The notes: generated by a model from the sequence alone, not told the origin. A DNA stretch of 64,000 bases from Candidatus Micrarchaeota archaeon (GCA_018819225.1 JAHJQN010000004.1:256001-320000); one strand, 5' to 3'. Positions 452 to 54,392 are shown, counted from the stretch's first letter. A program made the numbers and translations.

Positions 452-790
452 TTAAGAAAACCGGCGAGGCAACGCGTAAATGGAACCGCATTTCTTGCAT
501 ACCTTCTCCTTGTGCTTCCAATTTAATTCAAACGAAGTCGATCCACATTCATTGCACGCCTTCACATCCGTTTTGTGAAAGTCTTTCCAGCCCGCCTTCC
601 CCTCACGAGCCACAAACGATTGATGCGAATAAGCCACGCGTTCTTTGTGGAGAGGCGACGGATGATCGGGTCGACCGCGTTTTTCGATCGCACGACGAAC
701 TTTCCGAGAACTGCAGCGCGGGCAATTCATCGGATCTTCTGCATCAAACTCCAACTTGCAATTTTCGCACGAGTACTTATCGGATTTCAT
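452..790 (-). CDS. Double zinc-ribbon protein
   Basis: Four CxxC pairs (CENC, CPRC, CNEC, CKKC); second pair TFIIB-like; same strand, 6 bp after ATP-cone gene. Confidence 0.7.
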   Translation of the reverse strand: MKSDKYSCENCKLEFDAEDPMNCPRCSSRKVRRAIEKRGRPDHPSPLHKERVAYSHQSFVAREGKAGWKDFHKTDVKACNECGSTSFELNWKHKEKVCKKCGSIYALPRRFS

Positions 791-796
791 GGGGCA

Positions 797-1075
797 TCAC
801 GTCGAAAACGCCTTGGTAGACGTTTTAAATTCAAGATATGCCTTCGCGAGATCGGGGTCTCGGGCCTTTAACAAATCGCCGACTTCTTCTTTCACGCATA
901 ACGTACTGATGACGCCGCCGTGCGTACGATCCTTTAATTTGGGAATCAGCTGCTCAAGGAGTTCCCGCGCGGTCGATTCCGAACCCCCGGCGTTCAAAAT
1001 ACTTTTCATCACCTTGTCCGGTGAAAACGGTTCGACGCTGCCGTCAAATTTTCGAACGTTTTGAATCTCTTCCAC
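797..1075 (-). CDS. Stand-alone ATP-cone domain protein
   Basis: VRKFDGSVEPFSPDKVMKSI...VISTLCVKEEV...AKAY, the ATP-cone signature. Confidence 0.8.
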   Translation of the reverse strand: MEEIQNVRKFDGSVEPFSPDKVMKSILNAGGSESTARELLEQLIPKLKDRTHGGVISTLCVKEEVGDLLKARDPDLAKAYLEFKTSTKAFST

Positions 1076-2072
1076 GCGGAATTTCCCTCAAAATATAGCG
1101 TACAAAGCGCGCCATTCCCTCATGCAAAAGAATACGGGGACGGAATCCCAGCACCCGTTTCGCCTTGGAAATGTCGTACCGACGATCTTCAGTAAGCGTA
1201 TGCAAATACGCATTATAAAATCTTTGCTTGCGTCCAAGCAACCGGTCGCGAAAACGGAATCCCGCGAACAGGATGAAGGCGGCCGACCGCGAAATATGTT
1301 TCGTGGGAGGCGATGCACCGAAAGCCGTCGCCAATTCCGAAAACAATTGTTTCTGGGTGTGCGTTTCGCCGGAAGTAATGATGAAATCCTCCCGGCCTTT
1401 TTTCAACATCAACGCGCGGCGTATCGCTTGCACCACATCGTCCACGAAAATCAAGGGAATCGCATTCTCACCGGATCCGATCGTGCGCAATTGTCCTTTA
1501 CGCAGCATGCGCACCATGAATTCAAATCCGGATGTGAATCCTTCGCCGTAGATAATGGGCGGGCGTAAAATCACGTAGTCCAAATGACTTTCCTTCAACG
1601 CGGTTTCGGATGCCCGCTTGCTTCGACCGTACGGGCTAACGGGTTGGAACGGCGTGCGTTCATCGATGCGTTTTCCGCGAGGAGACTTAATGCCTCGGTA
1701 GACCGAGGTGGATGAAAGAAATACGAATCGCCTCACGCCCTTCAATTCAGCCGCCCGAATCAATTGAAGCGTCCCTTTGTAATTAACCGTCCAATGGCGG
1801 GTCTCCGGAGCCCCGTAATCGATGAGAGCCGCCAAGTGAATCAGGCGATCCACGTGTTGGCAGGCTTCCGTCAACCCAATAAAGTCCGAAGAAGACAGGT
1901 CGTGGGAAACGACTTGAACGCGATTTCCGAACAAGCGCTTCGCTTTAATGGGATCACGGACCAGAACGCGAATCCTTTTGCGAAAATTTTTTTGCGCTAA
2001 TAAGTCGTTGACGATCGCGGTTCCTAAACGACCCGTCGCTCCGGTCACCAGAATCCAGCCGTTCCGAGTCAT
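1044..2072 (-). CDS. NAD-dependent epimerase/dehydratase (extended SDR)
   Basis: GATGRLG, HLAA, SSTSVY and YGRSK motifs. Confidence 0.9.
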   Translation of the reverse strand: MTRNGWILVTGATGRLGTAIVNDLLAQKNFRKRIRVLVRDPIKAKRLFGNRVQVVSHDLSSSDFIGLTEACQHVDRLIHLAALIDYGAPETRHWTVNYKGTLQLIRAAELKGVRRFVFLSSTSVYRGIKSPRGKRIDERTPFQPVSPYGRSKRASETALKESHLDYVILRPPIIYGEGFTSGFEFMVRMLRKGQLRTIGSGENAIPLIFVDDVVQAIRRALMLKKGREDFIITSGETHTQKQLFSELATAFGASPPTKHISRSAAFILFAGFRFRDRLLGRKQRFYNAYLHTLTEDRRYDISKAKRVLGFRPRILLHEGMARFVRYILREIPRGRDSKRSKI

Positions 2073-2116
2073 GAACTACAACAGAAATCTCCGATATATA
2101 AACCTCAAGGAGAGCG

Positions 2117-5100
2117 CTAATCGTGCAGCGCGTTCAACGATACCAACGAGAAAGGCGAGCGAACCACGCGCATCGAACGAGCCAGTTGAAGCGCCAAATA
2201 CGCGCTCGTGAGCACGGGCAGGCCTCGTTGAACCGCTTCCCTGCGCAATGCAGAATCAGATCGAGCGTTGGAGCGGCTGCGAATCCCGTCAATGATGAAC
2301 GAGATCTCTCCGTTCCTCAGATGAGTAAGCGCTTCTTCGGGGGACCACGCCGGTAAAACGCGAATGCCCGCTTCCCTGAACGCATTGACCAACGCCTTGC
2401 GCCACTTTCCGCATGATCCGATGTAAACGGTTGGACCGAAGGAATGCCCTGCGGCGCTCATGGCCTTCAAGAATGCTTCTTCAAAAGTCGGCGCGACGCC
2501 CATGACTTCTCCCGTGCTCTTCATTTCAGGCGACAACACGGGATCGACATCCGCAAATTTTCGAAACGGAAACACGGGGGCTTTCACCGCATAGTATCCT
2601 TTCGGGGGAATCAGTTCGCGATCGAAATCCTTGAAGTATTCCGTCAGCTTCCCGCCCACTTGAATGGATGCCGCAATTTTCGCTAATGGAATGCCGGTCG
2701 CCTTACTCAAAAAAGGAATCGTGCGGGAAGCCCGCGGATTCACTTCCAAAACGTATACCGCATCGCCTTTCACGGCCATTTGAATGTTGACGAGTCCAAG
2801 AATATGAAACGAACGGCAAATATCGATAGTGAAACGGCGGATTTTTTTCATGGCTTCCTTTGAAATACGAACCGTTGGCAATACGCATGAAGAATCTCCG
2901 GAATGCACGCCCGCTTCCTCGATTTGTTCCATAATGCCGGCCAATTTAGTGTGCGTACCGTCCGCGAGCGCGTCCACGTCGACTTCGATGGCATCCTCCA
3001 GGAAACGGTCCATTAAAATCGCGTAGTTCCCAGAAACGAAAAGCGCTTCGTCCACGACGTCTAAAAGTTGAGACTCGTCGTATACGATTTCCATGGCCCG
3101 ACCTCCGAGAACGTAGGAAGGACGGACGAGCAACGGATAGGAAATGCCGCGGGCGATGCCGACGGCTTCCTCGCGCGTAAATGCGGTGCCGCTCTCGACG
3201 GTGGGAATCCGAAGACGTTGCATCACGTTTTTGAAACGTTTTCGATTCTGCGAAGCGTCAATATCGGAAATGGAAGTGCCCAGCACGTTGATACCATTCT
3301 CATGCAAGGGGAGCGCCAAATTCACGGCGGTTTGGCCTCCGAATTGAACCAAAACACCTTCCACTGGATCGCGTTGAAGAACATGCAAGACGTTTTCGGT
3401 TGTTAAAGGCTCGAAATACAGTTTATCCGCGATATCAAAGTCGGTACTCACGGTTTCGGGATTATTGTTGATGATGAGGGTCTCAAAGCCTTTTTCCTTG
3501 AGAGCCAGTACGGCGTGAACCGAGCAATAGTCGAATTCGATGCCCTGACCGATGCGTATAGGACCCGAACCCAAAATCGCGATCTTCCGACGTTTTTTCT
3601 TCACCAGAATCTGCGATTCGTCCAACGCATCATACGAGGAATAATAGTAAGGGGTTTTAGCAGGAAACTCCGCGGAACATGTATCGACCATCTTGAATAC
3701 CGGCGTCATGTGATGCTGGTTCCGGAAAAAGCGAATGGATGACGTGGATAGGCCGGACAAGCGACTGATGTCTTGATCCGAAAACCCGTCTTGCTTTGCC
3801 CGATGCATTAACGCCATGCCCGGCTCGTCCGCTTTCAAACGTTTCAACTCGTTTTCCATCCGCGCAACGCGCTCGATGCGTTCAATAAACCACGGGTGAA
3901 TCATCGTGCGCTTGGCGATCTCGGAAACGGACATGCGTCGAGTTGAAAGTAATTCTTGGATGGCCAGCAAGCGTAATTCATTGGGTTGCAACCACTCGTT
4001 AATCGTCTTTTCATCATCAAAACGGAAATCCGTTTTTACCTGCATTTCCAGAGAATGCATCGCTTTGTGTAAGCACGCCTCGAACGAGCGCTCGATCGCC
4101 ATGACTTCCCCCGTGCTCTTCATCTGCGTACCCAAGCCGCGTTGGGCCCGCAACTTGTCAAACGGCCATTTAGGAATCTTGAGTACCACGTAATCCAGCG
4201 AGGGTTCAAAAGCAGCGGATTGACCCGTCATACGATTCTCAATCTCATGCAACGAGTAACCCAGAGCAATCTTCGTGGCCACTCGCGCAATGGGATACCC
4301 CGTGGCTTTGGACGCGAGAGCGGAGGAGCGCGAGGTTCTTGGATTCACTTCAATGATCCAGTACTCCCCATTCTTCTGATTCAAAGCGAATTGGATATTG
4401 CATGCCCCACGCACTCCAAGAGCACGAACGATTTTGATTGCGGAGGCTCTCAAAAAATGGTATTCCTTATCCGTCAGAGTTTGCGAAGGCGCGACCACCA
4501 TGCTTTCTCCCGTATGCACGCCCATCGCATCCAAATTTTCCATGTTGCAAATCGTAATGCAATTGTCTTCCGCGTCCCGAATGACTTCATACTCAAATTC
4601 CGCCAGTCCCTCAAGACTTCGTTCGATTAATGCGGAGCGCGTCGCACTCAATTCCAATGCCCGAAGCACCGCCGGTTCAAATTCCTCGTCGCGGTGCACG
4701 ATTCCACTCCCGGTTCCCCCTAACGTGAAATCCGGCCGGATAATGAGCGGCAAGCCCAATTTTTTCAACGCGCCCCGAGCTTGCTCGAGCGACGTGCATC
4801 GTTGGCTTGGAGGAACCGGTTCCTTAATGCGTTTCATGAGTGCTTGAAACTGTTCCCGGTCCTCCGCTAATTGAATGGTTTCAATGGAAGTACCCAATAA
4901 CGTTATGCCGTGTTTTTTCAGAACCTCTTTTAATTCAATGGCGAGGTTGAGGCCGGTTTGACCGGCCATGGTGGCAATCATCGCCTCCGGTTTTTCCTTT
5001 TCAATGACGCGGGTAAGGGTTTCTTTGGTTAACGGTTCAATATAGATTTTGTCCGCGAACTCGAAATCCGTTTGAATCGTGGCCGGGTTGCTGTTCACTA

Positions 5101-5233
5101 GTATGATGCGCACGCCTTCTTCCTTCAGCGCTTTACAGCACTGCGTTCCCGAATAATCGAACTCGGCCGCTTGACCAATCACGATGGGCCCGCTTCCGAT
5201 GACCAACACGTTTTTTGGAACGGTTTTTTTCAT
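2117..5233 (-). CDS. carB: Carbamoyl-phosphate synthase large subunit
   Basis: GSGPIVIGQAAEFDYSG, duplicated ATP-grasp domains, EVNPRTSRS/EVNPRASRT, MKSTGEVM. Confidence 0.98.
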   Translation of the reverse strand: MKKTVPKNVLVIGSGPIVIGQAAEFDYSGTQCCKALKEEGVRIILVNSNPATIQTDFEFADKIYIEPLTKETLTRVIEKEKPEAMIATMAGQTGLNLAIELKEVLKKHGITLLGTSIETIQLAEDREQFQALMKRIKEPVPPSQRCTSLEQARGALKKLGLPLIIRPDFTLGGTGSGIVHRDEEFEPAVLRALELSATRSALIERSLEGLAEFEYEVIRDAEDNCITICNMENLDAMGVHTGESMVVAPSQTLTDKEYHFLRASAIKIVRALGVRGACNIQFALNQKNGEYWIIEVNPRTSRSSALASKATGYPIARVATKIALGYSLHEIENRMTGQSAAFEPSLDYVVLKIPKWPFDKLRAQRGLGTQMKSTGEVMAIERSFEACLHKAMHSLEMQVKTDFRFDDEKTINEWLQPNELRLLAIQELLSTRRMSVSEIAKRTMIHPWFIERIERVARMENELKRLKADEPGMALMHRAKQDGFSDQDISRLSGLSTSSIRFFRNQHHMTPVFKMVDTCSAEFPAKTPYYYSSYDALDESQILVKKKRRKIAILGSGPIRIGQGIEFDYCSVHAVLALKEKGFETLIINNNPETVSTDFDIADKLYFEPLTTENVLHVLQRDPVEGVLVQFGGQTAVNLALPLHENGINVLGTSISDIDASQNRKRFKNVMQRLRIPTVESGTAFTREEAVGIARGISYPLLVRPSYVLGGRAMEIVYDESQLLDVVDEALFVSGNYAILMDRFLEDAIEVDVDALADGTHTKLAGIMEQIEEAGVHSGDSSCVLPTVRISKEAMKKIRRFTIDICRSFHILGLVNIQMAVKGDAVYVLEVNPRASRTIPFLSKATGIPLAKIAASIQVGGKLTEYFKDFDRELIPPKGYYAVKAPVFPFRKFADVDPVLSPEMKSTGEVMGVAPTFEEAFLKAMSAAGHSFGPTVYIGSCGKWRKALVNAFREAGIRVLPAWSPEEALTHLRNGEISFIIDGIRSRSNARSDSALRREAVQRGLPVLTSAYLALQLARSMRVVRSPFSLVSLNALHD

Positions 5234-6336
5234 AAGGATTTCACGAACTCATCGAATAATTCATTCGAATCTTTCGGGCCCACATGGCCCTCCGGATGAA
5301 ACTGGCACGAGAAAATGGGCAAGGTCTTGTGGCGCAGCCCCTCGTTGGTTCCATCATTGCAATTCTCATACAAGGGAAGAACATCGGAAGGCAAATCCGT
5401 CACCGCAAAACCGTGATTCTGCGAAGTAATGAAGAGGCGCTGCGTTTCCAGATTGCGGACCGCGTGGTTGCTGCCGCGGTGACCAAACGTGAGTTTGAAC
5501 GTTTTCGCACCCAACGCGAGTGCCAGCACTTGATTTCCTAAACAAATGCCGAACAACGGTTTTTCCGCCAGCAGTTGTTTGGCCGTTGCGACGGTTTTTT
5601 TCATCATGGTGGGATCGCCCGGGCCGTTGGAAAACAATAGGCCGTCCACGCGATCGCGCATGATCTCTTCAGCAGACGTTTGGTAAGGATAGACGGTCAC
5701 GTTCATTCCGCGAAGCAATAACTCTTGGAGCATGCTCGTTTTACCGCCGCAGTCAATGAACGCCACGTGTTTTTTCGCGTTCTGGACGACGTGTTTTTTC
5801 TTTTCGGGTACGCTGACTTCCCGCACGAAATCAATTTCCGAATACCGGTATTTGGTTATAGTGGATTGCAATGCGCGAACTTGGTCTTCAACGCTTTGAG
5901 ACGGATCGCGTCGTGCCACCGCACACGGAACCACCCCGGATTCCCGCACGCGTCGAACAATGGCACGGGTATCCACACGGTGAATTCCCGGAATGTCTTG
6001 CGTTTTCATCCATTCATCTAACGAGGAACGGGCTTTGTAATGCGAATAGAACGAAGTCACTTCACGGCAAACCATGGCTTTGACATGAATGCGCTGCGAT
6101 TCATTGTCTTCTTCATTGATCCCGTAATTGCCAAGGAGAGGGTAAGCAAACGTGAGCACTTGTCCCGCATAAGAAGGATCCGTCATGGCTTCCTGATAGC
6201 CCGTCATAGAGGTATTGAAAACGAGTTCTCCAATCGTTGTGCGATCAGAACCGAATCCTTCACCGAGAAAAAAGGAGGCGTCTTGCAACACCAGAAGCGC
6301 ATCTTTCGCACTAACCCCTCCTCTCGTGAAAGACAT
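5230..6336 (-). CDS. carA: Carbamoyl-phosphate synthase small subunit
   Basis: GELVFNTSMTGYQE, SNGPGDP, GICLG, QFHPE. Confidence 0.98.
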   Translation of the reverse strand: MSFTRGGVSAKDALLVLQDASFFLGEGFGSDRTTIGELVFNTSMTGYQEAMTDPSYAGQVLTFAYPLLGNYGINEEDNESQRIHVKAMVCREVTSFYSHYKARSSLDEWMKTQDIPGIHRVDTRAIVRRVRESGVVPCAVARRDPSQSVEDQVRALQSTITKYRYSEIDFVREVSVPEKKKHVVQNAKKHVAFIDCGGKTSMLQELLLRGMNVTVYPYQTSAEEIMRDRVDGLLFSNGPGDPTMMKKTVATAKQLLAEKPLFGICLGNQVLALALGAKTFKLTFGHRGSNHAVRNLETQRLFITSQNHGFAVTDLPSDVLPLYENCNDGTNEGLRHKTLPIFSCQFHPEGHVGPKDSNELFDEFVKSL

Positions 6337-6390
6337 GAGAATCAGAATTAATAAAAGAGGCTTCAGTTATTTAAATGGATCGGCGGGTGT

Positions 6391-6687
6391 TTAAGAAGAA
6401 CGGCGTTGACGAACCGCAAACAGAGCAAAAACGGCCATTATCAAGCCCATCCAAACCGGTATATCCGGCGTTGACCCCTGAACGTCGCCAGTGCGCTGAA
6501 TCGTGCACGAAGCGCTTCCGAGATCAGCCACAAGCGCTTGCAAGTGGTAATCGCCTAATGTGAATGGTTTCCACGCGATATGCGACGAACCCATCGCCTT
6601 CCTCTTCCACGATGCTTGGCGAACCCGTCAACAGAATATCGGAATCAGAAAAAGAAATAAGAAGCAATGAAAGCGTCGGGCGATCAT
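6391..6687 (-). pseudogene. Small secreted/anchored protein with an in-frame TGA at codon 20 (possible remnant)
   Basis: ATG 6687 gives hydrophobic MIARRFHCFLFLFLIPIFC, then TGA (6628-6630); same frame continues into ORF 6391..6594 ending TPDIPVWMGLIMAVFALFAVRQRRSS (sorting-signal-like tail). Confidence 0.35.
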
Positions 6688-6773
6688 ACATTGAGAATAG
6701 GCCCGTTGAATAAAAACGTTCAGCTTGAAGGAAGGCACAAAAGGATTTAATATCCAGAACCAGTTAACTTCCC

Positions 6774-7472
6774 ATGCTCTTTTTGGATACCGTGCTGAAG
6801 ACGTTCGCCAAGATATTCCGAGTCATCAACCAACGGCGCACGGTCCTGATCATGCTATTGATCGGAGGACCCGTATCCATTTACTTGTTTCAAGACTTAT
6901 GGATGAAACAAGAATTCACGATTCAGATTATCGCGGTATACGTTCTGGCCTTGTTACCCTTGATGCTCTATAAAGCATTTCTGTATTTTATACTCGCGAT
7001 ATTCGATGTACTCGTGATGTCCTTTGCAGACTACAGCCAAGTATACGAGCTCGATTTCGAACGCGTGCGCGCGCGCATCTCCTCCATTTTATACGAACAC
7101 AAAGTGAAATACCAGTCACTCGAAAAACTGGCTCTGGGAGGCGAACGAGGGCTACTGGCCGCATATCGCTCCATTTTCAAGACGAATTACCCGCTGATTT
7201 TTGTTTGTGCGGACGAACCGTTTATTGTCATTAAAATCTTCCAGAAAATTCAAGCCCCCAACCTCGTGCGCATCCGACAGCAGTTGCGACCCCATCAAAA
7301 CATCCGCATTCACATATTTACGAGCCAGGATCCCAAAGCGAAGGTGGTGGCTAAGCTGATCATCAACTCGTTGCAGATTCTAAATCAAGATCACATGCAA
7401 GCACTTGAAAAAGGAAAATTCAATGAAGCCATTGACGTGACCGTCCCTCTCTCCAAAAAAAAGGCGAAATGA
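6774..7472 (+). CDS. Hypothetical membrane protein (paralog of next gene)
   Basis: Two N-terminal TM helices plus soluble domain; TTTAATA box upstream. Confidence 0.7.
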   Translation: MLFLDTVLKTFAKIFRVINQRRTVLIMLLIGGPVSIYLFQDLWMKQEFTIQIIAVYVLALLPLMLYKAFLYFILAIFDVLVMSFADYSQVYELDFERVRARISSILYEHKVKYQSLEKLALGGERGLLAAYRSIFKTNYPLIFVCADEPFIVIKIFQKIQAPNLVRIRQQLRPHQNIRIHIFTSQDPKAKVVAKLIINSLQILNQDHMQALEKGKFNEAIDVTVPLSKKKAK

Positions 7473-8134: not shown

Positions 8135-9451
8135 ATGGATTGGGGATGGCAGATAACGACTCAAGCGGATGCCACGTATACGTTGGATTCCCGTTGGATA
8201 CTGAATCCAACCGAACGCTTTATCTACGAGACGCTGTACAGTCAATTAAAAAATAAAAAAGACATTTCTTTGAACGAACTGCCGGAGCACCTATTCCGAT
8301 TGTGCGAACGTCGAAATCATGCTCTAAAAAGCGATCGGGCCCGCACCATTATCCAATTGGTTCAAATGAACGTGGAAGGATTCGGGATACTCGATCCGTT
8401 ACTCCACGATGATCGGATTGAGGAAATTGCGGTTTGGACGACGAATGAACCGATTCGAGTCTACCTTCGCGAAAAAGGGTGGCAGAAAACCAACGCGGTA
8501 TTTACGTCCAACGAATCCTTAATTTCCTTGATCAATAAGATGGCGCGACCCCTGGGAAGGCGGCTTTCATATCAAACGCCGCGCATCAACGCGTTCTTGC
8601 CAAACGGTAATCGGTTGCATGCGGCCATCCCACCCGTTACGTTAAACGGAACCACGCTCACGATTCGGCGGTTCCGCGAATCCCCTTGGAGTATCACCGA
8701 TTTGGTTCGGAATGGAACGATATCCGCAGACGCCGCCGCATGTGTTTGGATGGCGTGCCTAACCGATACGAACATACTGATTGCAGGGAACACGGGAAGC
8801 GGTAAAACGTCATTCCTCAATGCGTTATTTGCATTTGTTCCCATCCAGGAACGCATCGTTCTCGTCGAAGAGACCCCGGAGATCCGTATTCCGCAGACGC
8901 ATTGCGTGCGGTTAATGGCCCATACCGGATGGGGTATCACGATGAGCAGTCTCGTTCTGGATACGCTGCGCATGCGACCCGACCGGCTCGTGATAGGAGA
9001 ATCCCGGTCCGAAGAAGAAGTGCGCGCGTTGTTCGACGCATTATCTTCAGGACAAGCCAAGGGAACGTTTGCAACGTACCATGCCCGAACGGCATCGGAG
9101 GCCTTGCATCGGTTGAAAGCACAAGGAATTCGCGATTATGAAATGAGCGCCCTGGACTTGATCGTCGTTTTGAGGAGATACGATTTTTTCAAGGGTCATC
9201 AGTCGACGGAACGTCGAAAAGTCATGGAGATCGCATGCATTGAAAACGGAGAATGTAAAACGCTGAAAACCGTTAACGATCCGTATCGTTTAGGAACTTC
9301 AAGTGCATTCGGGAAAAAAATGGTGAACGCGTTCGGAGGGTTATCCGCGCATCAAAAGCAGTGGAGGAGACGGTCCCAGTTCATTAAAGCCCTCGCGGAT
9401 CGTCGTGCGGATCCGACGGAAACCACTCATGCACTGCAATCGTTTCGATAA
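8135..9451 (+). CDS. Type II/IV secretion ATPase (CpaF/VirB11/FlaI family)
   Basis: Walker A GNTGSGKT, Asp box EETPE, LRMRPDRLVIGE, TYHA, IRRFR. Confidence 0.92.
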   Translation: MDWGWQITTQADATYTLDSRWILNPTERFIYETLYSQLKNKKDISLNELPEHLFRLCERRNHALKSDRARTIIQLVQMNVEGFGILDPLLHDDRIEEIAVWTTNEPIRVYLREKGWQKTNAVFTSNESLISLINKMARPLGRRLSYQTPRINAFLPNGNRLHAAIPPVTLNGTTLTIRRFRESPWSITDLVRNGTISADAAACVWMACLTDTNILIAGNTGSGKTSFLNALFAFVPIQERIVLVEETPEIRIPQTHCVRLMAHTGWGITMSSLVLDTLRMRPDRLVIGESRSEEEVRALFDALSSGQAKGTFATYHARTASEALHRLKAQGIRDYEMSALDLIVVLRRYDFFKGHQSTERRKVMEIACIENGECKTLKTVNDPYRLGTSSAFGKKMVNAFGGLSAHQKQWRRRSQFIKALADRRADPTETTHALQSFR

Positions 9452-31274: not shown

Positions 31275-31373
31275 GCCTCCGTAGCTCAGGGGTAGAGCGC
31301 CTGTCTTGTAGGGATGGTTAGAAACGCGTTCCAAGAAAACAGGAGGTCGCGAGTTCAATTCTCGCCGGAGGCT
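31275..31373 (+). tRNA. tRNA-Thr(TGT) with 27-nt intron at 37/38 (31311..31337)
   Basis: Acceptor GCCTCCG/CGGAGGC, anticodon stem CCTGT/ACAGG, T arm GCGAG-TTCAATT-CTCGC; BHB helix CTTG:CAAG. Confidence 0.95.
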
Positions 31374-47032: not shown

Positions 47033-47080
47033 TTGCCACTAATAGTGTATGATTGGCTTCCTAGACCCCAGATATTGTGG
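47033..47080 (+). promoter_or_regulatory. Tandem NrdR boxes downstream of a TATA box
   Basis: ACCCCAGATATTGTGG (47065-80) fits acaCwAtATaTwGtgt; weaker TTGCCACTAATAGTGT (47033-48) lies 32 bp upstream; CTTTTTA at 47026-32. Confidence 0.65.
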
Positions 47081-47105
47081 GTTCGGGAATGGAGGATGGC
47101 AACGC

Positions 47106-47561
47106 ATGAAATGCCCGTATTGCGGACACGCGGACAGCAGCGTACTGGATTCCCGGGACGCCGAAGATTTCGAGATCACGCGTCGGAGAAGAGAATGCAG
47201 CAAGTGCGGCAAGCGGTTTACGACTTACGAGCGCGTCGAAATGGTGAACTTGCTCGTGCACAAGAAGGATGGGAAAAGCCAGCAATTTGAGCGAAATAAA
47301 CTGGAAGGGGGTATTGTGCGGGCGTGCGAAAAACGGCCCGTCACCCGAGAACGCATCGGGCAATTGGTGGACGAAATCGAACGCGAGCTACGGCGCAAGA
47401 AAAGCACGGAAATCGCGAGCAAGGAAATCGGGGAAATCGTGATGCGCAAGCTCAAAACAATCGACAAGGTCGCGTATATTCGATTTGCCTCCGTCTACCG
47501 GGAATTTGCGGACGTCGAGGACTTTGAAGACGAATTGCATAAACTCTTGAAGAGGAAATGA
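47106..47561 (+). CDS. nrdR: Transcriptional repressor NrdR
   Basis: MKCPYC...VLDSR...RRRREC...RFTTYER, ATP cone, VAYIRFASVYREF. Confidence 0.97.
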   Translation: MKCPYCGHADSSVLDSRDAEDFEITRRRRECSKCGKRFTTYERVEMVNLLVHKKDGKSQQFERNKLEGGIVRACEKRPVTRERIGQLVDEIERELRRKKSTEIASKEIGEIVMRKLKTIDKVAYIRFASVYREFADVEDFEDELHKLLKRK

Positions 47562-47565
47562 ACGC

Positions 47566-49740
47566 GTGAAATCCATTCAACGCATCAGGAAACGCGACGG
47601 CAGCATCGTTCCATTCAATAACCAACGCATTGAAAACGTCATTTTTAATGCGGCGCAATCCGTGGGCGGCAAGGACCGGAAGATGGCCGAAAAACTGGCG
47701 GGAAAAGTCGTGGAAGAGTTGGTCAAGCGTTTCGATGAAACGCGTATTCCCGCCGTGGAAGACGTTCAAGATACCGTTGAAAAAATTCTGATCGAAAACG
47801 GGCACGCCGCCACCGCGAAAGCATTCATATTATACCGCGAGAAACGACGCGAAATGCGTCAAACGAAAATGGAGGTGGCAGGCAAGCCGTTCAAGAGCCC
47901 GATCAGCGTCAACGCCATGCACATTCTCAAGGAACGCTATTTGTTGAAGGATGCGGAGGGGACGGTAATGGAAACGCCCGACGAGATGTTTCAACGCGTC
48001 GCGCGAGATGTATCGCAAGCGGATGCGTATTACGGTGCGAATGAAAGCCAGCGAAAACAAACCGAGGAGCGTTTTTACATGCTCATGCAGCGCTTAGTGT
48101 TCCTCCCAAGTACGCCGACGTTGATGAACGCGGGGACGTCACAACGCATGTTGAGTACGTGCTCCGTGATCCCCGTCGAGGATTCCATGGACAGCATATT
48201 CAGCGCCTTGAAAGCCGGGGCGCTAACGCATCAAGCCGGGGGCGGCACCGGATATGCATTCTCTCGTATTCGTCCGAAGAAGGACCGCGTGCGGGGCAAG
48301 CACGGGGTAGCGAGCGGACCCGTATCATTCTTACACGTGTTCGACGCCAGTTCGGACGCGATTCGGCAAGGAGGAAAACGTCGAAGCGCCAACATGGGCG
48401 TGTTACGAGTCGACCACCCCGATATTCTGGAATTCATTTCCATCAAACACAACGGAAATCAATTGCAGAGCTTCAATTTATCCGTCGGATTAACGGACGC
48501 GTTCATGAATGCTTTAAAGAAGAAAACGGAGTACGCCCTCGTTAACCCACGAAACCAAAAAGAAGCGGGGAAGATGAATGCGGAAGAAGTGTGGCAGCAC
48601 TTGGTGAGCGAAGCATGGCTGACGGGAGATCCCGGCGTCATATTCTTGGATGAGATCAATCGAACGAACCCGACGCCTGCGCTGGGACGCATTGAAGCCA
48701 CGAACCCGTGCGGGGAAGCGCCGCTTTTGGCCTACGAGCCGTGTCCTTTGGGCAGCATCCGCGTCTCGTCCTTTGTGGATCAGAAAGAATTGAATTGGAA
48801 GGAATTGAAAAAAGCCGTTCATGATGCGATTCACTTTTTAGATAATGTGATTGATCGGACGCAATACCCCTTGCCGCAAATGGGTGCGATGACGCGAGGC
48901 AACCGAAAAATTGGGTTAGGCATCATGGGATTCGGCGATCTCCTGTACATGATGCGCATACCCTACAATTCAACAGAAGGGATCGCATTCGCCGAAAAAC
49001 TGATGGCATTCATTTCCATGGAAGCGGACGCGGCATCTGAAAAACTGGCCGTAAAACGCGGCGCATTTCCGAACTGGCGTAAAAGCGTTTATTCAGCGAA
49101 GGGAAGAAAGCTGAGAAACGCGACGCGTACCTGCATTGCGCCGACGAGAACCATCGGAATGATTGCGGATTGCTCTCCGGGAATCGAACCCGTTTACGCG
49201 TTAAGTTACGAGAAGCACGTACTGGAAGGAGATCGATTGCGATACGCGAACCCGCTTTTCGAGGAAGCCGTTCAAGAAAAAGGGCATGATCTCCCGAACG
49301 TCTTAAAACAAATTTCGGCTACCGGAAGCTCCAAAGGAGTGCGCGGTTTGTCCCCTGCATTGAAACGCGTGTTCGTTACGGCACGGGGTATCGCACCGGA
49401 ATGGCACGTACGCATGCAGGCCGCGTTCCAGAAGCATACGGACCTCGGCGTATCAAAAACCATCCACTTCGCTCATTCCGCTACCCCGAATGAGGTAGGG
49501 AAGGCGATGCGTCTCGCATACGAATTGGATTGCAAGGGCATTGCCGTCCATCGAAACCAAAATCGGCTGGATCAAGTGCTTCAAACGGGTTCCGACGAGG
49601 AACCGGTAATGGAAAGAACGGAAGATAAGGAAATCAGCGAAGAAAAACGAGAACCGTGTCCGAACTGTCGGAATGTTATAGTTTACAGGGGGAATTGTGC
49701 CACCTGCAATAAATGCGGGGCGGTATTCTGCGTATCGTGA
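47566..49740 (+). CDS. nrdJ: Class II (adenosylcobalamin-dependent) ribonucleotide reductase with N-terminal ATP cone
   Basis: TPTLMNAG, STCSV, GGGTG, RRSANMG, HPDI, ATNPCGE, CPLGS, RKIGLGIMG, VSKTI, C-terminal CxxC pairs; no nrdB nearby. Confidence 0.93.
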   Translation: MKSIQRIRKRDGSIVPFNNQRIENVIFNAAQSVGGKDRKMAEKLAGKVVEELVKRFDETRIPAVEDVQDTVEKILIENGHAATAKAFILYREKRREMRQTKMEVAGKPFKSPISVNAMHILKERYLLKDAEGTVMETPDEMFQRVARDVSQADAYYGANESQRKQTEERFYMLMQRLVFLPSTPTLMNAGTSQRMLSTCSVIPVEDSMDSIFSALKAGALTHQAGGGTGYAFSRIRPKKDRVRGKHGVASGPVSFLHVFDASSDAIRQGGKRRSANMGVLRVDHPDILEFISIKHNGNQLQSFNLSVGLTDAFMNALKKKTEYALVNPRNQKEAGKMNAEEVWQHLVSEAWLTGDPGVIFLDEINRTNPTPALGRIEATNPCGEAPLLAYEPCPLGSIRVSSFVDQKELNWKELKKAVHDAIHFLDNVIDRTQYPLPQMGAMTRGNRKIGLGIMGFGDLLYMMRIPYNSTEGIAFAEKLMAFISMEADAASEKLAVKRGAFPNWRKSVYSAKGRKLRNATRTCIAPTRTIGMIADCSPGIEPVYALSYEKHVLEGDRLRYANPLFEEAVQEKGHDLPNVLKQISATGSSKGVRGLSPALKRVFVTARGIAPEWHVRMQAAFQKHTDLGVSKTIHFAHSATPNEVGKAMRLAYELDCKGIAVHRNQNRLDQVLQTGSDEEPVMERTEDKEISEEKREPCPNCRNVIVYRGNCATCNKCGAVFCVS

Positions 49741-49746
49741 GAGCGA

Positions 49747-50136
49747 ATGAAATTTTACTTTTTGGTACTCGCCGTTCTTTTGATAGGATGCATTCAACCG
49801 CCTCCACCCGAATCAACCGAAGAATGGATTGCTGTGACCATCGTGATCGATAACGGAACGCTATCGAAAACGGTTATGGATGAAGTGATACCGGGAACGA
49901 CGGCGTTGGAAGCGTTCCAGAAAGTGGCGATTCTGCATACGAGAGACTATGGAAACTTGGGAGCGTATATTGATGGAGTCGATGGATTGATGGAGAATGC
50001 GGGCGGGAACGGAAAGTTCTGGCAATATTACGCGGATGGGGAGTACGCGAAAATCGGGGTTTCGCAGTACCCGATTCGCGAGCCGGTGACACTGGTACTC
50101 AAGTACGAGTCCCAACAAACGCAGGAATTCGAATAA
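49747..50136 (+). CDS. DUF4430 / transcobalamin C-terminal (beta)-domain-like lipoprotein
   Basis: Lipobox LIGC; GTTALEA...GAYIDGVDG...FWQYYADG...GVSQY...LVLKY. Confidence 0.82.
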   Translation: MKFYFLVLAVLLIGCIQPPPPESTEEWIAVTIVIDNGTLSKTVMDEVIPGTTALEAFQKVAILHTRDYGNLGAYIDGVDGLMENAGGNGKFWQYYADGEYAKIGVSQYPIREPVTLVLKYESQQTQEFE

Positions 50137-50137
50137 A

Positions 50138-50740
50138 CTAGTTTAACCAGTTCAACGCAGCTGCCCATGCTCCGCGTTCGGACAGCACGCGACTGGGGCC
50201 GTAACTCAATACCAATGCATCGCCGTTCTGGGCGGAAATGGAGTCCAGAAGCGATTTCGCTAACGGATCGCCCGACGATTCACGCGTACCCGGAAAGAAC
50301 AGCCGGTTCTTCTCAACGACTAAAACGGTTGCGCCCAACGCGCCTTCACGGATTGCGGCATCGCGTTCCTCCAAACCCCGTTTAACCACCGACGCGGCTC
50401 CGGAAACCATCAAACCATAAGCCGGCAAATGAAACGTCAACGGGCTTTTCGGTGCATCTCCCATCCAACGCAATTTTTTCATCATCCGATACCAATACGA
50501 TGACCCTTTTGGAGTCAAACGGCAACCGGCCTTAGTCATACGTACAAAGCCCTCGCGGGAAAGAATGCCGAGCAGAGTCCGCATGGATCCTTCCCCGACT
50601 CCCAGACGTTCACTCAAACGTTTTCTACCCAATGATTCAAGAGAAATGAGTCTCAGAGCACGTAAAAGATCGACGCCCACGAAAGCGGGGCGCGGGCCAT
50701 ACGCGCTCGGAACCGCCTTTTTGATGAGAGAAGAGAGCAT
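50138..50740 (-). CDS. HTH-containing protein, DUF4443/DUF2111-like (putative regulator)
   Basis: GPRPAF, LGRKRLSERLGVGEGSMRTLL (HTH), GLEERDAAIREGALGA. Confidence 0.78.
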   Translation of the reverse strand: MLSSLIKKAVPSAYGPRPAFVGVDLLRALRLISLESLGRKRLSERLGVGEGSMRTLLGILSREGFVRMTKAGCRLTPKGSSYWYRMMKKLRWMGDAPKSPLTFHLPAYGLMVSGAASVVKRGLEERDAAIREGALGATVLVVEKNRLFFPGTRESSGDPLAKSLLDSISAQNGDALVLSYGPSRVLSERGAWAAALNWLN

Positions 50741-50746
50741 GAAGGG

Positions 50747-50792
50747 GTTGGATGGAAAAAGGAATATAAAGATGTTGGATGATACATCCAAC
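50747..50792. promoter_or_regulatory. Palindromic operator in a divergent promoter
   Basis: GTTGGATG-ata-CATCCAAC (50774-92) just 3' of AATATAAA (50763-70); extra half-site GTTGGATG (50747-54). Confidence 0.65.
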
Positions 50793-50803
50793 CCGAGATT
50801 CTC

Positions 50804-52381
50804 ATGGATTGGAAAAGTTTCGGCGCAGTCTTTGTCGCGCTTTTTTCGCTGGCTTCAGCCGGCGCCTTGGAGAATGCAACCGAATGGCTTTCCATTCACC
50901 AGAACCCGGACGGAAGCTGGGGAAACTTCAATTGTTGGGAGCCGCTTTGCACGCCGTGGGCTTCGCATGCGCATCAGAACACGTACGGAAACACGAGCAA
51001 TTTTTCCTCTGCACTCGTCTGGATGATCAGCGATCTGGAAAACGGGGAATCGTGGAGCTGGGCCGAAGCGGATATCCCGGGAGCGGAATTGTACGCGATT
51101 GCGCGGTCCGGTAATTTCTCGGACTTGAATCTCACGAACGTTTCAACTCGATTAAGGGGCATGCAAGCGGATAACGGGGGTTTCTCGGGCTGGTGGACGG
51201 AAAACGGAACGATTGCAGATAGCGTGGACACCGTGTTTGCACTACGAGGGCTCATGGCCGCCAACGAAATCAATGAAAGCAACGTCTCTTCCGCCACACA
51301 GTTTTTGCTTTCTCTTCAAAACGGGGACGGGAGCTTCAACCATTCTCTTGAAATCGCGGAAACCAACCTGAGTTCCCTGGGTCCTGACCGCGCGACCACC
51401 ACCGCTCTCTCCGTAATCGCATTATTGGAAAGTGGTTTGAACGCCTCGGATTCATCCATCCAAAACGCGTCCCGATTCTTAAAGGAAGAAGCGCGTGCGT
51501 GTTTCGGGGAAAACGGTCACGGCTACACCGCTTCATGGAGCGCGCAAGCGCTTTATTCAATAGGAGAAGAGGAATACGCGGAAGCCATCCTGCGATATTT
51601 AACGACGCTTCAGAACGTGGATGGAGGGTTCCGCGACAGCTACCGGACCGGAAACGAGTCCAATGCGCTGGATACCGGACTAGCCATTTTGGCGCTGACT
51701 CAAAATCATTCATCGAACGGGTCCGTTTGTTTCCCGTTAGAGACGCCGATCCTTTCGTTCATTCAAACGCTTTACCCGGGAGAGCAGCAAAACATCTCCG
51801 TAAACGTTTCTGAAATCCCGCTTTCGATCACGGGAAATATAACGACGCCGGAAAATGCGACGCACAACCTTTCCTTCACGTTCAATGCCAACCGTTCGCA
51901 ATATACTGCCTTATTCAATGAAACAAACGGAACCGGAAATTACGTTCTCGACGTGCGAGTAGATTATATTGGCAATACATTCGAACTCGAGGGGACATTT
52001 CAAGTGGAAATGCAGCCGACTCCCACGCCCGAACCGCCTCCCGTGCCCACGAATCCGCCAGTGTACAACACCGGGTATTATAGCAACCCGTACTTGACGC
52101 CGACGAGCACACCGACGCCAACCAATACTCCAACACCTACCCCTCGAATCCCGTTCGTTTCCATTGTGAATGAGACGACAACCCCTATTCCGTCCGCAAC
52201 TTGGGCTCCGACCAACAAACCGACTTCGAGTCCCTCACCATCCATCGATCCGTCACCCACACTTCAACAGACCACGGGTTTAGTCGGTGCAGGATACGAT
52301 TGGGGATACGGACTCGTGTTCATGGCAATGATTTTATTAATCGCTGGCATCTTTCTGGTACGCAAGCAGGTGAATCCGTGA
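50804..52381 (+). CDS. Membrane-anchored prenyltransferase/squalene-cyclase-repeat (alpha6/alpha6 barrel) surface protein
   Basis: Signal peptide; QNPDGSW, QADNGGF, QNGDGSF, QNVDGGF repeats; PT linker; C-terminal TM. Confidence 0.82.
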   Translation: MDWKSFGAVFVALFSLASAGALENATEWLSIHQNPDGSWGNFNCWEPLCTPWASHAHQNTYGNTSNFSSALVWMISDLENGESWSWAEADIPGAELYAIARSGNFSDLNLTNVSTRLRGMQADNGGFSGWWTENGTIADSVDTVFALRGLMAANEINESNVSSATQFLLSLQNGDGSFNHSLEIAETNLSSLGPDRATTTALSVIALLESGLNASDSSIQNASRFLKEEARACFGENGHGYTASWSAQALYSIGEEEYAEAILRYLTTLQNVDGGFRDSYRTGNESNALDTGLAILALTQNHSSNGSVCFPLETPILSFIQTLYPGEQQNISVNVSEIPLSITGNITTPENATHNLSFTFNANRSQYTALFNETNGTGNYVLDVRVDYIGNTFELEGTFQVEMQPTPTPEPPPVPTNPPVYNTGYYSNPYLTPTSTPTPTNTPTPTPRIPFVSIVNETTTPIPSATWAPTNKPTSSPSPSIDPSPTLQQTTGLVGAGYDWGYGLVFMAMILLIAGIFLVRKQVNP

Positions 52382-52923
52382 ACTCCATTTCCAGTATAAT
52401 CAAATTCATCATCGGCATCGTGTTCACGATGTTGTTTCGATTGCTGCACATGCCGCTGCCGAACCTGGAACCCATCATGGGTACCACGATTCCGTTCGCG
52501 CGGAAAATGGGTAAGTACGCCGGAATGACGTTTGCGTTCCTCGCATTGGTTTCCTTCGACTTCATTACCGGACGAATCGGAGCATGGACCGTTTACACGG
52601 GAATCGCTTATTCCGCCGTCGGTTATTTCGCTGCCGGTTATTTTGCTAAAAGAAAATTGAAGCTCAAGAACACGATTCCGTTTGCCGTGGGAGCGACATT
52701 GTTCTATGATGCTTTGACCGCGGTACTGTTCGGATGGCAGTTCGGTCAACCGCTGAGTATTACGATGATGGGCCAAATACCGTTTACGCTTTACCACCTG
52801 CTCGGGAACATCGCGGCCGTTGGGATTTTGACACCCCTCATCAACTCGGCGATTGTCGAAAACAAGGCGTTGGATGCCGTTTTAGATCGCTGGATTCAAG
52901 GAGTTAAAACCGCAGTCTCGTAA
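52378..52923 (+). CDS. ECF transporter S-component (CbrT/DUF6580-like)
   Basis: GTGA overlap with upstream stop; FRLLHMPLPNLEPI motif, 5-6 TM, IPFTLYHLLGN. Confidence 0.78.
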   Translation: MNSISSIIKFIIGIVFTMLFRLLHMPLPNLEPIMGTTIPFARKMGKYAGMTFAFLALVSFDFITGRIGAWTVYTGIAYSAVGYFAAGYFAKRKLKLKNTIPFAVGATLFYDALTAVLFGWQFGQPLSITMMGQIPFTLYHLLGNIAAVGILTPLINSAIVENKALDAVLDRWIQGVKTAVS

Positions 52924-53226: not shown

Positions 53227-53778
53227 ATGCTCGAACGCATCCAACGTTTTTTCTCCCATGCTAGATACATCACGCTCGGAATGATGGATGGAGGGCTGGC
53301 CACGTTAAGTGTCGTAACCGCAGCGTATTTTACCAGTATTGAGAGCACGACGGCGTTGATACGCGTTCTGTTAGGAGTAGCCATTGGAATCTCTGCATCC
53401 AATTTCTCAGGAGCTTATTTAGCGGAACAAGCAGAAATCAACAAGGATCGAAGGAAAATCGAGCGGTCCATGGGTTTGAAATCCGGGCATTTACAGCATA
53501 CGCTATTAGGCTATCAACTGAGAAAGAAAGTCATTATTCGGGCACTCACCAATAGCGGGGCCGCGTTTCTCGGAGTACTGATCAGCATTCTCCCCTTATT
53601 GTTTTTCCCGTATTATTCCGGAATCTTTGGCTCGATTCTCGTTTCCATGGGCCTATTGTTTTTACTAGGAGTCTATTTAGGCCACTACAACAAGACGGAC
53701 TTGTTCTTGAACGGAGTGAAAGTATTGTTGATCGCATTACTTGTACTCGTGGTCAACGTACTGATTTCGTACGTTTAA
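53227..53778 (+). CDS. VIT1/CCC1 family transporter
   Basis: LGMMDG, GAYLAEQAE, LFLLGVYLG. Confidence 0.82.
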   Translation: MLERIQRFFSHARYITLGMMDGGLATLSVVTAAYFTSIESTTALIRVLLGVAIGISASNFSGAYLAEQAEINKDRRKIERSMGLKSGHLQHTLLGYQLRKKVIIRALTNSGAAFLGVLISILPLLFFPYYSGIFGSILVSMGLLFLLGVYLGHYNKTDLFLNGVKVLLIALLVLVVNVLISYV

Positions 53779-53779
53779 A

Positions 53780-54241
53780 TTACTCTCTCATATTGATGAC
53801 CAAATCCGCCGTGTTCTTGAGCGCGGACGAAAAATCGGGCTCCGTTCCCACGACAATGGTTTCTTTGCCGTGCTTTTTCGCAATCGTCAGAAGAGGCTTG
53901 TAATCCGAATCGCGGGAAACCACGACAATCACCTCGATATTGGGATTAAACACGGATTCCGTGGCATGAACCGCCAACGCCACGTCAACGTCCGAAGGAA
54001 CGATAATCACTTCATATCCTTGATTGGTGACGGCTTCAATGAGTTTGTCGGAAGCGTATTGATCCAAGAACACTTTCGCGACTTTAATGGTGCCGTGCTT
54101 CTGCAACCTCTTCCGCACTTTACCGAGATCAATACCCAACTCCTTGCGAATCATGTTCGGGCCATCCACAAAACACGCCAAGCCTTTCTCGCGCTTGGCT
54201 TTCGCTACCATCGACTTGAACTGGTCTAACACATTCGGCAT
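53780..54241 (-). CDS. NYN-domain protein (TIGR00288-like)
   Basis: FVDGPNMIRKE, DVDVALAV, SRDSDY, FSSALKNTAD. Confidence 0.9.
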   Translation of the reverse strand: MPNVLDQFKSMVAKAKREKGLACFVDGPNMIRKELGIDLGKVRKRLQKHGTIKVAKVFLDQYASDKLIEAVTNQGYEVIIVPSDVDVALAVHATESVFNPNIEVIVVVSRDSDYKPLLTIAKKHGKETIVVGTEPDFSSALKNTADLVINMRE

Positions 54242-54392
54242 CAAAACCACCTATCAAAATAATCAAAGGGAATAAAGGCCATGTTACCAGCGAACTATTT
54301 AAGTGCTTCGGCCATCCATGAAAAGGGATTCATCCTTTCAGGAAAAGGGTTAAATACGGCGCAAGCGTAATGCGGGAAGAGGGAAACGCGTT

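Follow-up and report, generated by a model that had tools for sequence, protein, structure and literature searches.

A predicted corrinoid capture-and-import locus beside a class II ribonucleotide reductase gene in a Micrarchaeota archaeon

Described B12 importers and the Micrarchaeota locus

Cobalamin transport by an energy-coupling factor (ECF) complex has been proven for ECF-CbrT of Lactobacillus delbrueckii, in which the genes form an nrdJ-cbrS-cbrT-pduO cluster (Santos et al. 2018; PMC5997447; PDB 6FNP). Here we describe a locus in a 64,000-nucleotide stretch (the window) of a Candidatus Micrarchaeota genome (GCA_018819225.1; JAHJQN010000004.1:256001-320000, contig C2 of a 1.37-Mb, about 90% complete assembly of eight contigs), in which nrdR and nrdJ, the latter coding for a B12-dependent class II ribonucleotide reductase (RNR), are followed by genes for a DUF4430 lipoprotein, a winged-helix regulator, a toroid surface protein and a small membrane protein of the S-component type. 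The closest public relatives of the locus are also labelled Candidatus Micrarchaeota. The locus is probably a corrinoid (vitamin B12) capture-and-import module serving the B12-dependent RNR of a B12-auxotrophic Micrarchaeota archaeon. Its S-component is small, belongs to the same sequence family as CbrT and shares with it the PN-x-x-P and F-x-L-x-H-x-x-G-N motifs; in both systems it stands beside a class II RNR, and a PduO-type adenosyltransferase is part of the kit, encoded elsewhere in this genome and adjacent in loci of Candidate Phyla Radiation (CPR) bacteria. The present system differs from ECF-CbrT in its archaeal DPANN host, its extra toroid protein, its putative protein regulator with a palindromic operator and in that no ECF module lies in the locus, with none found in most relatives.

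The combination of surface proteins has other precedents. A role in B12 scavenging was predicted by Burroughs et al. (2007; PMC1796856) for SLBB proteins of bacteria, which often form one chain with alpha/alpha toroids and are encoded together with CbiO and CbiQ; these authors considered the copies in archaea to be sporadic and thought that they might act on a different metabolite. The Micrarchaeota locus resembles these systems in pairing an exported or anchored SLBB (DUF4430) protein with an alpha/alpha toroid, a tie seen in signal peptides, adjacency and fusions, and in its host, apparently without B12 synthesis, and its predicted role. Their proteins are mainly fused, Gram-positive and accompanied by CbiO and CbiQ, whereas here the two proteins are separate, have their own anchors and lie beside nrdJ and a CbrT-like carrier; the locus contains no CbiO-like ATPase or CbiQ-like T component, and the sole such pair of the genome lies on another contig. 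In Latilactobacillus sakei, Lsa1836-1840 include separately encoded proteins resembling the alpha and beta domains of transcobalamin (TC) in an ECF operon for which heme has been proposed as substrate (bioRxiv 10.1101/864751). A split pair adjoining an S-component is common to both loci, but that of L. sakei is bacterial, has a complete ECF module in its operon and has no described link to nrdJ.

BtuM of Thiobacillus denitrificans, a B12 carrier in which a cysteine is the cobalt ligand (PMC6072759), works as an S-component-type carrier without an ECF module, which is likely the situation in most relatives of this archaeon. BtuM (6FFV) gave no match to our S-component family profile at E up to 10 in a search of the PDB and no cysteine is found among the invariant columns of the family alignment. 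Lastly, animal TC, intrinsic factor (IF) as well as haptocorrin (HC) have in common with the locus the beta-domain fold, an (alpha/alpha)6 toroid partner and, in fused relatives of our proteins, the toroid-then-SLBB order. The animal proteins are single soluble polypeptides, whereas here two genes split by a minus-strand gene code for two membrane-tethered products, each with its own anchor; the window toroid has no match to PF01122 (Cobalamin_bind) and thus no detectable homology to that family, and delivery would be to a membrane carrier instead of the endocytic receptor of animals. We regard the module as an archaeal variant, itself uncharacterised, of a theme that is known or predicted in bacteria; the bacterial prediction dates from 2007, and one member of the carrier family has been characterised.

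The predicted carrier, the lipoprotein and the toroid protein

The S-component gene (52378-52923, plus strand) codes for 181 residues that we predict, from a family profile and from its context with class II RNR, PduO and DUF4430 genes here and in relatives, to form a CbrT-like corrinoid carrier. A word-based search retrieved 15 relatives and an exhaustive profile search 352. Among 81 full-length family members, 32 matched PF07155, 24 PF20221 (DUF6580) and 15 PF12822, each of these being an S-component family. When the profile of these 81 members was compared with solved chains, the sole significant match was 6FNP_A of ECF-CbrT (E 9.3e-13, positions 5-155), with the PN-x-x-P, G-x-W-T and F-x-L-x-H-x-x-G-N motifs aligned; we took this 182-residue chain to be CbrT from its length, no other chain of that entry having the size of an S-component. 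The next S-component in the search was FolT, at an E value of 6.6. A grouping with families of other substrates, which would have spoken against the proposal made in an initial annotation of the window, was not seen, CbrT alone being matched (9e-13). The GTG start codon overlaps the stop codon of the toroid gene by 4 bp (GTGA), in keeping with the translational coupling given in that annotation, and its position is shared by homologues; the R...PNLEP motif of the annotation was seen as R-x6-P-L-PNLEP.

The DUF4430 gene (49747-50136, plus strand, 129 residues) starts 6 bp past the nrdJ stop codon. Its product matches PF14478 (1e-9), bears a signal peptide whose last residues are LIGC and carries the motifs GAYIDGVDG, FWQYY and GVSQY, and the G-C lipobox is kept in six aligned archaeal copies (the window and five Micrarchaeota loci). 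An AlphaFold2 model (pLDDT 87.7) was compared with the PDB by Foldseek, and all 19 significant matches were beta domains of TC, HC or IF, or 3U7Z, a DUF4430 protein of R. gnavus. The best match was 5NO0 (E 1.5e-6, target-normalised TM-score 0.74, root-mean-square deviation (rmsd) 2.8 Å), and beyond the top 19 the list falls to E values above 0.01. Additionally, a seven-row profile matched HC (4KKI) at 1.6e-4; a single-sequence search against PDB sequences gave no match and a word-based homologue search returned only the protein itself, the homologues having been taken from loci fetched via the S-component. The family match, the structural comparison and the profile all identify the SLBB/DUF4430 beta domain of TC, IF and HC, in agreement with the initial annotation, which had described a lipoprotein with beta-domain motifs 6 bp after nrdJ. 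The beta-grasp domain of transcobalamin holds the nucleotide side of B12, and from its modelled fold the DUF4430 lipoprotein is predicted to be a surface corrinoid binder.

The toroid gene (50804-52381, plus strand) codes for a 525-residue protein with weak Prenyltrans, SQHop_cyclase and TED matches. Its signal peptide is followed by the (alpha/alpha)6 barrel (about residues 20-305) and a middle domain, then by a Pro/Thr-rich stalk and, at the C terminus, a transmembrane anchor. The protein contains four Q-x-x-D/N-G-x-F/W repeats, so that the membrane-anchored alpha-barrel with QxxDGxF repeats of the initial annotation was recovered, as was every other sequence feature that it had placed at nrdJ and at the DUF4430, toroid and S-component genes. 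The AlphaFold2 model (pLDDT 88, pTM 0.87) shows a complete barrel whose best structural match is squalene-hopene cyclase (SHC) 2SQC (Z 26.7, rmsd 2.9 Å over 273 residues), and the toroid family profile (alignment A3) matches SHC at 1.7e-13. An (alpha/alpha)6 barrel with QW-type repeats, a trait of class II terpene cyclases and prenyltransferase beta subunits, is thus present. We rejected the possibility that the protein is an enzyme of the cyclase or prenyltransferase type, because the DxDD catalytic motif was missing when the sequence was read through and because the signal peptide and C-terminal anchor place the protein outside the cytoplasm. The toroid protein is predicted to be the partner of the DUF4430 protein; a complex prediction for the two domains, made without cobalamin, scored 0.00, which speaks neither for nor against binding. 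As a separate observation, five soil archaeal contigs (L011-L015) carry a toroid homologue of 377-394 residues (about 36% identity) near a 203-208-residue ECF_trnsprt-like membrane protein, and in three of them (L011-L013) a Peripla_BP_2 (BtuF-type) binding protein is also nearby.

Several relatives tie the two surface proteins together. Toroid-DUF4430 fusions of 583-621 residues are found in three related Micrarchaeota genomes, with the toroid N-terminal and the DUF4430 domain C-terminal, which is the domain order of transcobalamin; for the fusion in genome G016, identity with the toroid of the window is 42% (E 4e-55) and that with its DUF4430 protein 35% (E 9e-12). The 248-residue genes downstream of two of the fusions (L098 and L100) showed no relationship to each other. 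Furthermore, the genes for DUF4430 and the toroid adjoin each other in seven loci spread over two domains of life, three in Micrarchaeota and four in CPR bacteria, and three of the CPR loci (L076, L051 and L092) have a cobalamin or AdoCbl-II riboswitch directly upstream of the pair.

Conserved context, apparent B12 dependence and putative regulation

The distribution of the S-component was scanned in one genome per prokaryotic species, and 80 loci (L016-L095) were kept, with context scored within 8 kb of the S-component. All are labelled DPANN archaea or CPR/Patescibacteria save a few with Methanosarcinales or Gammaproteobacteria labels, which we take to be binning mislabels. An RNR large-subunit gene was found within this distance in 33 of the 80 loci, on the same strand in 31 and directly adjacent in 23, and a PduO-type adenosyltransferase gene was next door in 16. 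For six sampled CPR RNRs the best model was TIGR02505 (adenosylcobalamin-dependent ribonucleoside-triphosphate reductase), with 262-308 bits, below the cut-off of 340 bits but far above other families. The order of genes is also conserved: nrdR-nrdJ-DUF4430-(DUF4443)-toroid-S-component-NYN recurs in three Micrarchaeota loci (L017, L019 and L020), the 4-bp overlap of the toroid and S-component genes is found in L005, L006 and L017, and four CPR loci (L088, L076, L051 and L092) have the order S-component, nrdJ, DUF4430, toroid, with pduO after nrdJ in the first three.

We also compared 41 related genomes, which are kin and not independent, so that the counts are descriptive. The S-component was present in 22 and DUF4430 in 21, with both in 19, the S-component alone in three and DUF4430 alone in two; DUF4430 was accordingly found in 19/22 genomes with the S-component versus 2/19 without it. 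NrdJ was encoded in 18 of the 22 genomes with the S-component. The genes therefore do co-occur, a point on which the initial annotation had staked its proposal, as judged from the class II RNR in 33/80 loci, DUF4430 in 19/22 genomes and the adjacency of the DUF4430 and toroid genes.

The genome itself appears to depend on B12. nrdJ (47566-49740, plus strand) codes for an adenosylcobalamin-dependent class II RNR with an N-terminal ATP-cone (TIGR02504, 634 bits against a cut-off of 400; PF02867, 2e-120), and nrdR (47049-47561, plus strand) for a repressor with a Zn-ribbon and an ATP-cone (TIGR00244, 187 bits against a cut-off of 125; PF22811 and PF03477). Judged from the TIGR00244 alignment, which begins at residue 20, the true nrdR start is likely M20 at 47106. 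The PduO-type adenosyltransferase is encoded elsewhere in the same genome. NrdD, NrdB, CobS, CbiB and FecCD/BtuC were not found in this 90% complete genome; as far as this gene content shows, DNA synthesis depends on imported corrinoid. The host is apparently a B12 auxotroph, as the gene content suggests (CobS and CbiB not found, genome 90% complete), and as far as can be seen in a genome of this completeness a BtuCD-type importer is not present.

Two side observations concern these genes. The palindrome CACTAaTAGTG (47038-47048) and CCCAGATATTGTGGG (47067-47081) lie upstream of nrdR, about 31 bp apart centre to centre, and resemble tandem NrdR boxes; a candidate NrdR regulon in an archaeon is worth a look. 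In addition, a second nrdJ with inteins is found on contig C5 (L101, G000:C5:92000-101000; positions 562-5508) as an open frame of 1648 residues, and the PduO-type gene of the genome (6794-7411 in the same locus) lies 1.3 kb downstream of it on the opposite strand.

The four plus-strand genes are not one operon, since a minus-strand gene of the DUF4443/PH0730-like winged-helix type (50138-50740 or 50791; PF14544, 8e-19; PF22167, 2e-8) lies between the DUF4430 and toroid genes; this gene had been overlooked in the initial annotation. Its product probably starts at the ATG at 50740 (200 residues) and not at 50791 (217 residues), and the homologue in L010 has 201 residues. The gene is divergent from the toroid gene, with a gap of 63 bp, and a region with promoter and operator features (50745-50794) covers a half-site, GGGTTGGATG (50745-50754), a TATA-like element, AATATAAA (50763-50770), and a perfect palindrome, TTGGATgatacATCCAA (TTGGAT-N5-ATCCAA; 50775-50791), that stops 12 bp short of the ATG of the toroid gene. 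Only two perfect TTGGAT-N5-ATCCAA sites occur in the 1.37-Mb genome. The second (8194-8210) lies about 60 bp inside an open reading frame (8135-9451) for a T2SSE-type ATPase and is probably unrelated to the operator; it may be a chance occurrence, or the frame may start later. In related loci amounting to 1.12 Mb just three perfect palindromes occur, all between DUF4443 and toroid genes, in L010 and L019, and in L023 the corresponding position is taken by a copy with two mismatches. The toroid gene is thus preceded by the palindrome wherever a divergent DUF4443 gene adjoins it, and loci without a DUF4443 gene lack the palindrome. The DUF4443 protein, a likely repressor, is a putative B12 sensor that would act on the palindrome. 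No riboswitch was detected in the window, the sole Rfam match being one tRNA, and to our knowledge archaea are without riboswitches.

Downstream of the S-component gene, a gene for a TIGR00267/VIT1-like membrane protein and then one for a TIGR00288 NYN-domain protein occupy 53227-54250; the NYN gene holds the same position downstream of the S-component in seven related loci. The tRNA match of the window (31275-31373) covers 99 bases of sequence against the 71 positions of the model, a length that points to a tRNA gene with an intron.

Proposed import route and alternative explanations

Which genes are present and in what order, to which folds and families their products belong, and that their context is conserved are all observed, and independent lines of comparison make corrinoid scavenging well supported. 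Beyond this, we infer a physical clamp, a hand-over to the carrier, independence of an ECF module and B12 sensing by DUF4443. According to this proposal, the DUF4430 lipoprotein, co-transcribed with nrdR-nrdJ, would bind corrinoid at the cell surface through its beta-grasp domain, the stalked and membrane-anchored toroid would supply the other face of the site and the pair would form a two-chain analogue of transcobalamin. Corrinoid would then be handed to the CbrT-like S-component, translationally coupled to the toroid, which would move it across the membrane either alone or with the single EcfA-EcfT pair found on another contig, and inside the cell the PduO-type adenosyltransferase would make adenosylcobalamin for NrdJ. 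The divergent DUF4443 regulator would control the toroid/S-component operon by binding to the TTGGAT-N5-ATCCAA palindrome, located between TATA box and start codon, a form of control that would fill the place of the cobalamin riboswitches of the bacterial versions. In its complete form, with a CbrT-type carrier that has no ECF motor, is fed by a two-chain tethered transcobalamin analogue and is switched by a DUF4443 B12 sensor at the palindrome, the proposal is tentative and we hold it to be doubtful.

Several points weigh against the reading of the locus as a corrinoid module. Corrinoid binding and transport by these archaeal and CPR families are predictions, and the window S-component taken singly matches no Pfam or NCBIfam model. 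NrdJ is encoded in 12 of the 19 relatives without the S-component. The genes are separable: the S-component stands alone in L001-L003, the toroid gene is missing from L022 and both nrdJ and the toroid gene from L018, and in G016 the genes are scattered. Both its sequence and its ranked fold matches place the toroid closest to terpene cyclases, prenyltransferases and TED domains; its top 50 structural matches (Foldseek, VIA-align) do not include TC, and its A3 profile gives no TC, IF or HC match at E up to 10. Given that TC is missing from the structure and profile matches, homology of the toroid to the TC alpha domain is not upheld and the fold class alone is shared; the absence of TC from the top 50 indicates no specific kinship but does not exclude kinship. 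The split transcobalamin pair of the initial annotation is supported by the fold of the beta domain, the fusions and the riboswitches, while its toroid half has no specific kinship to TC alpha.

A further such point is that CbrT of L. delbrueckii requires its own ECF module and, when solitary, was inactive in the assay of Santos et al. (PMC5997447). No ECF ATPase or T subunit had been noted in the window, and a tblastn search of it with the genome's own EcfA and EcfT indeed gave no match. A search of the whole genome, which had been suggested for ecfAA'T, revealed a pair that the initial annotation had overlooked, in the sole ECF-type operon of the genome, on contig C6 (L009, G000:C6:113000-127000; positions 4918-7025). 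This operon has the order S-EcfA-EcfT and codes for a 267-residue multi-transmembrane protein without a Pfam match, an ABC ATPase and a 185-residue EcfT with two x-S-R-G coupling motifs. It is quite possible, if rather less than probable, that our S-component is not solitary and docks on this EcfA-EcfT pair by sharing of the group II ECF type, as CbrT does in L. delbrueckii. The C6 module, however, already has an adjacent S-component, and EcfT was found in only 6 of the 41 related genomes, searches with Pfam CbiQ and with the genome's own EcfT being in agreement. Among the 22 relatives bearing the S-component it was present in four and was not found with either query in 18, several of these genomes reaching 90% completeness or more in assemblies of 5-20 contigs; since the T subunit is not found in most relatives, the S-component may work alone.

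The place of the toroid may also be read otherwise, with the DUF4430 lipoprotein and the S-component handling B12 by themselves and the toroid being a co-regulated surface protein for glycan or envelope binding or for anchoring. The cyclase, prenyltransferase and TED kinship of the toroid would fit such a role, the isolated TC beta domain binds cobalamin by itself (PDB 5NP4), L022 and L018 keep DUF4430 and the S-component without the toroid gene, and L010 has a DUF4443-toroid pair without the S-component. We nevertheless regard this as unlikely, given the fusions in transcobalamin domain order, the DUF4430-toroid pairs behind B12 riboswitches in CPR bacteria, the 4 bp by which the toroid gene overlaps the S-component gene in the window as well as in L005, L006 and L017, and one CPR toroid homologue with a weak match to the eukaryotic cobalamin-binding family PF01122 (E 4e-4). 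That the module imports heme or another tetrapyrrole instead of corrinoid, as proposed for lsa1836-1840 of L. sakei, where a split pair and an ECF-like transporter are linked to heme uptake (bioRxiv 10.1101/864751), seems very improbable to us. The identity of a ligand cannot be read from folds, but the context is specific for B12 (class II RNR, PduO and the cobalamin riboswitches ahead of the DUF4430-toroid pair), CbrT, a cobalamin and cobinamide transporter (PMC5997447), is the closest relative of the S-component with a solved structure, and neither cytochrome bd nor a heme-copper oxidase was found in the genome, these two families having been searched at 90% completeness.

The reading as a corrinoid capture-and-import module gives a likely role to three families that are uncharacterised, namely the CbrT-like/DUF6580-type carrier, the prokaryotic DUF4430 proteins and the surface toroid family, and it provides binding studies with a form of transcobalamin that would naturally consist of two chains. 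Additionally, DUF4443 and its palindrome are a concrete regulator-operator pair with which to ask how archaea sense B12; if the proposal is true, the locus would be the archaeal equivalent, based on a protein, of the regulon that cobalamin riboswitches control in bacteria, with a transport part held in common with CPR bacteria. We know of no experimental study of B12 acquisition in DPANN archaea or CPR bacteria, two groups that are alike in being ultra-small and host-dependent and that rely on others for their cofactors.

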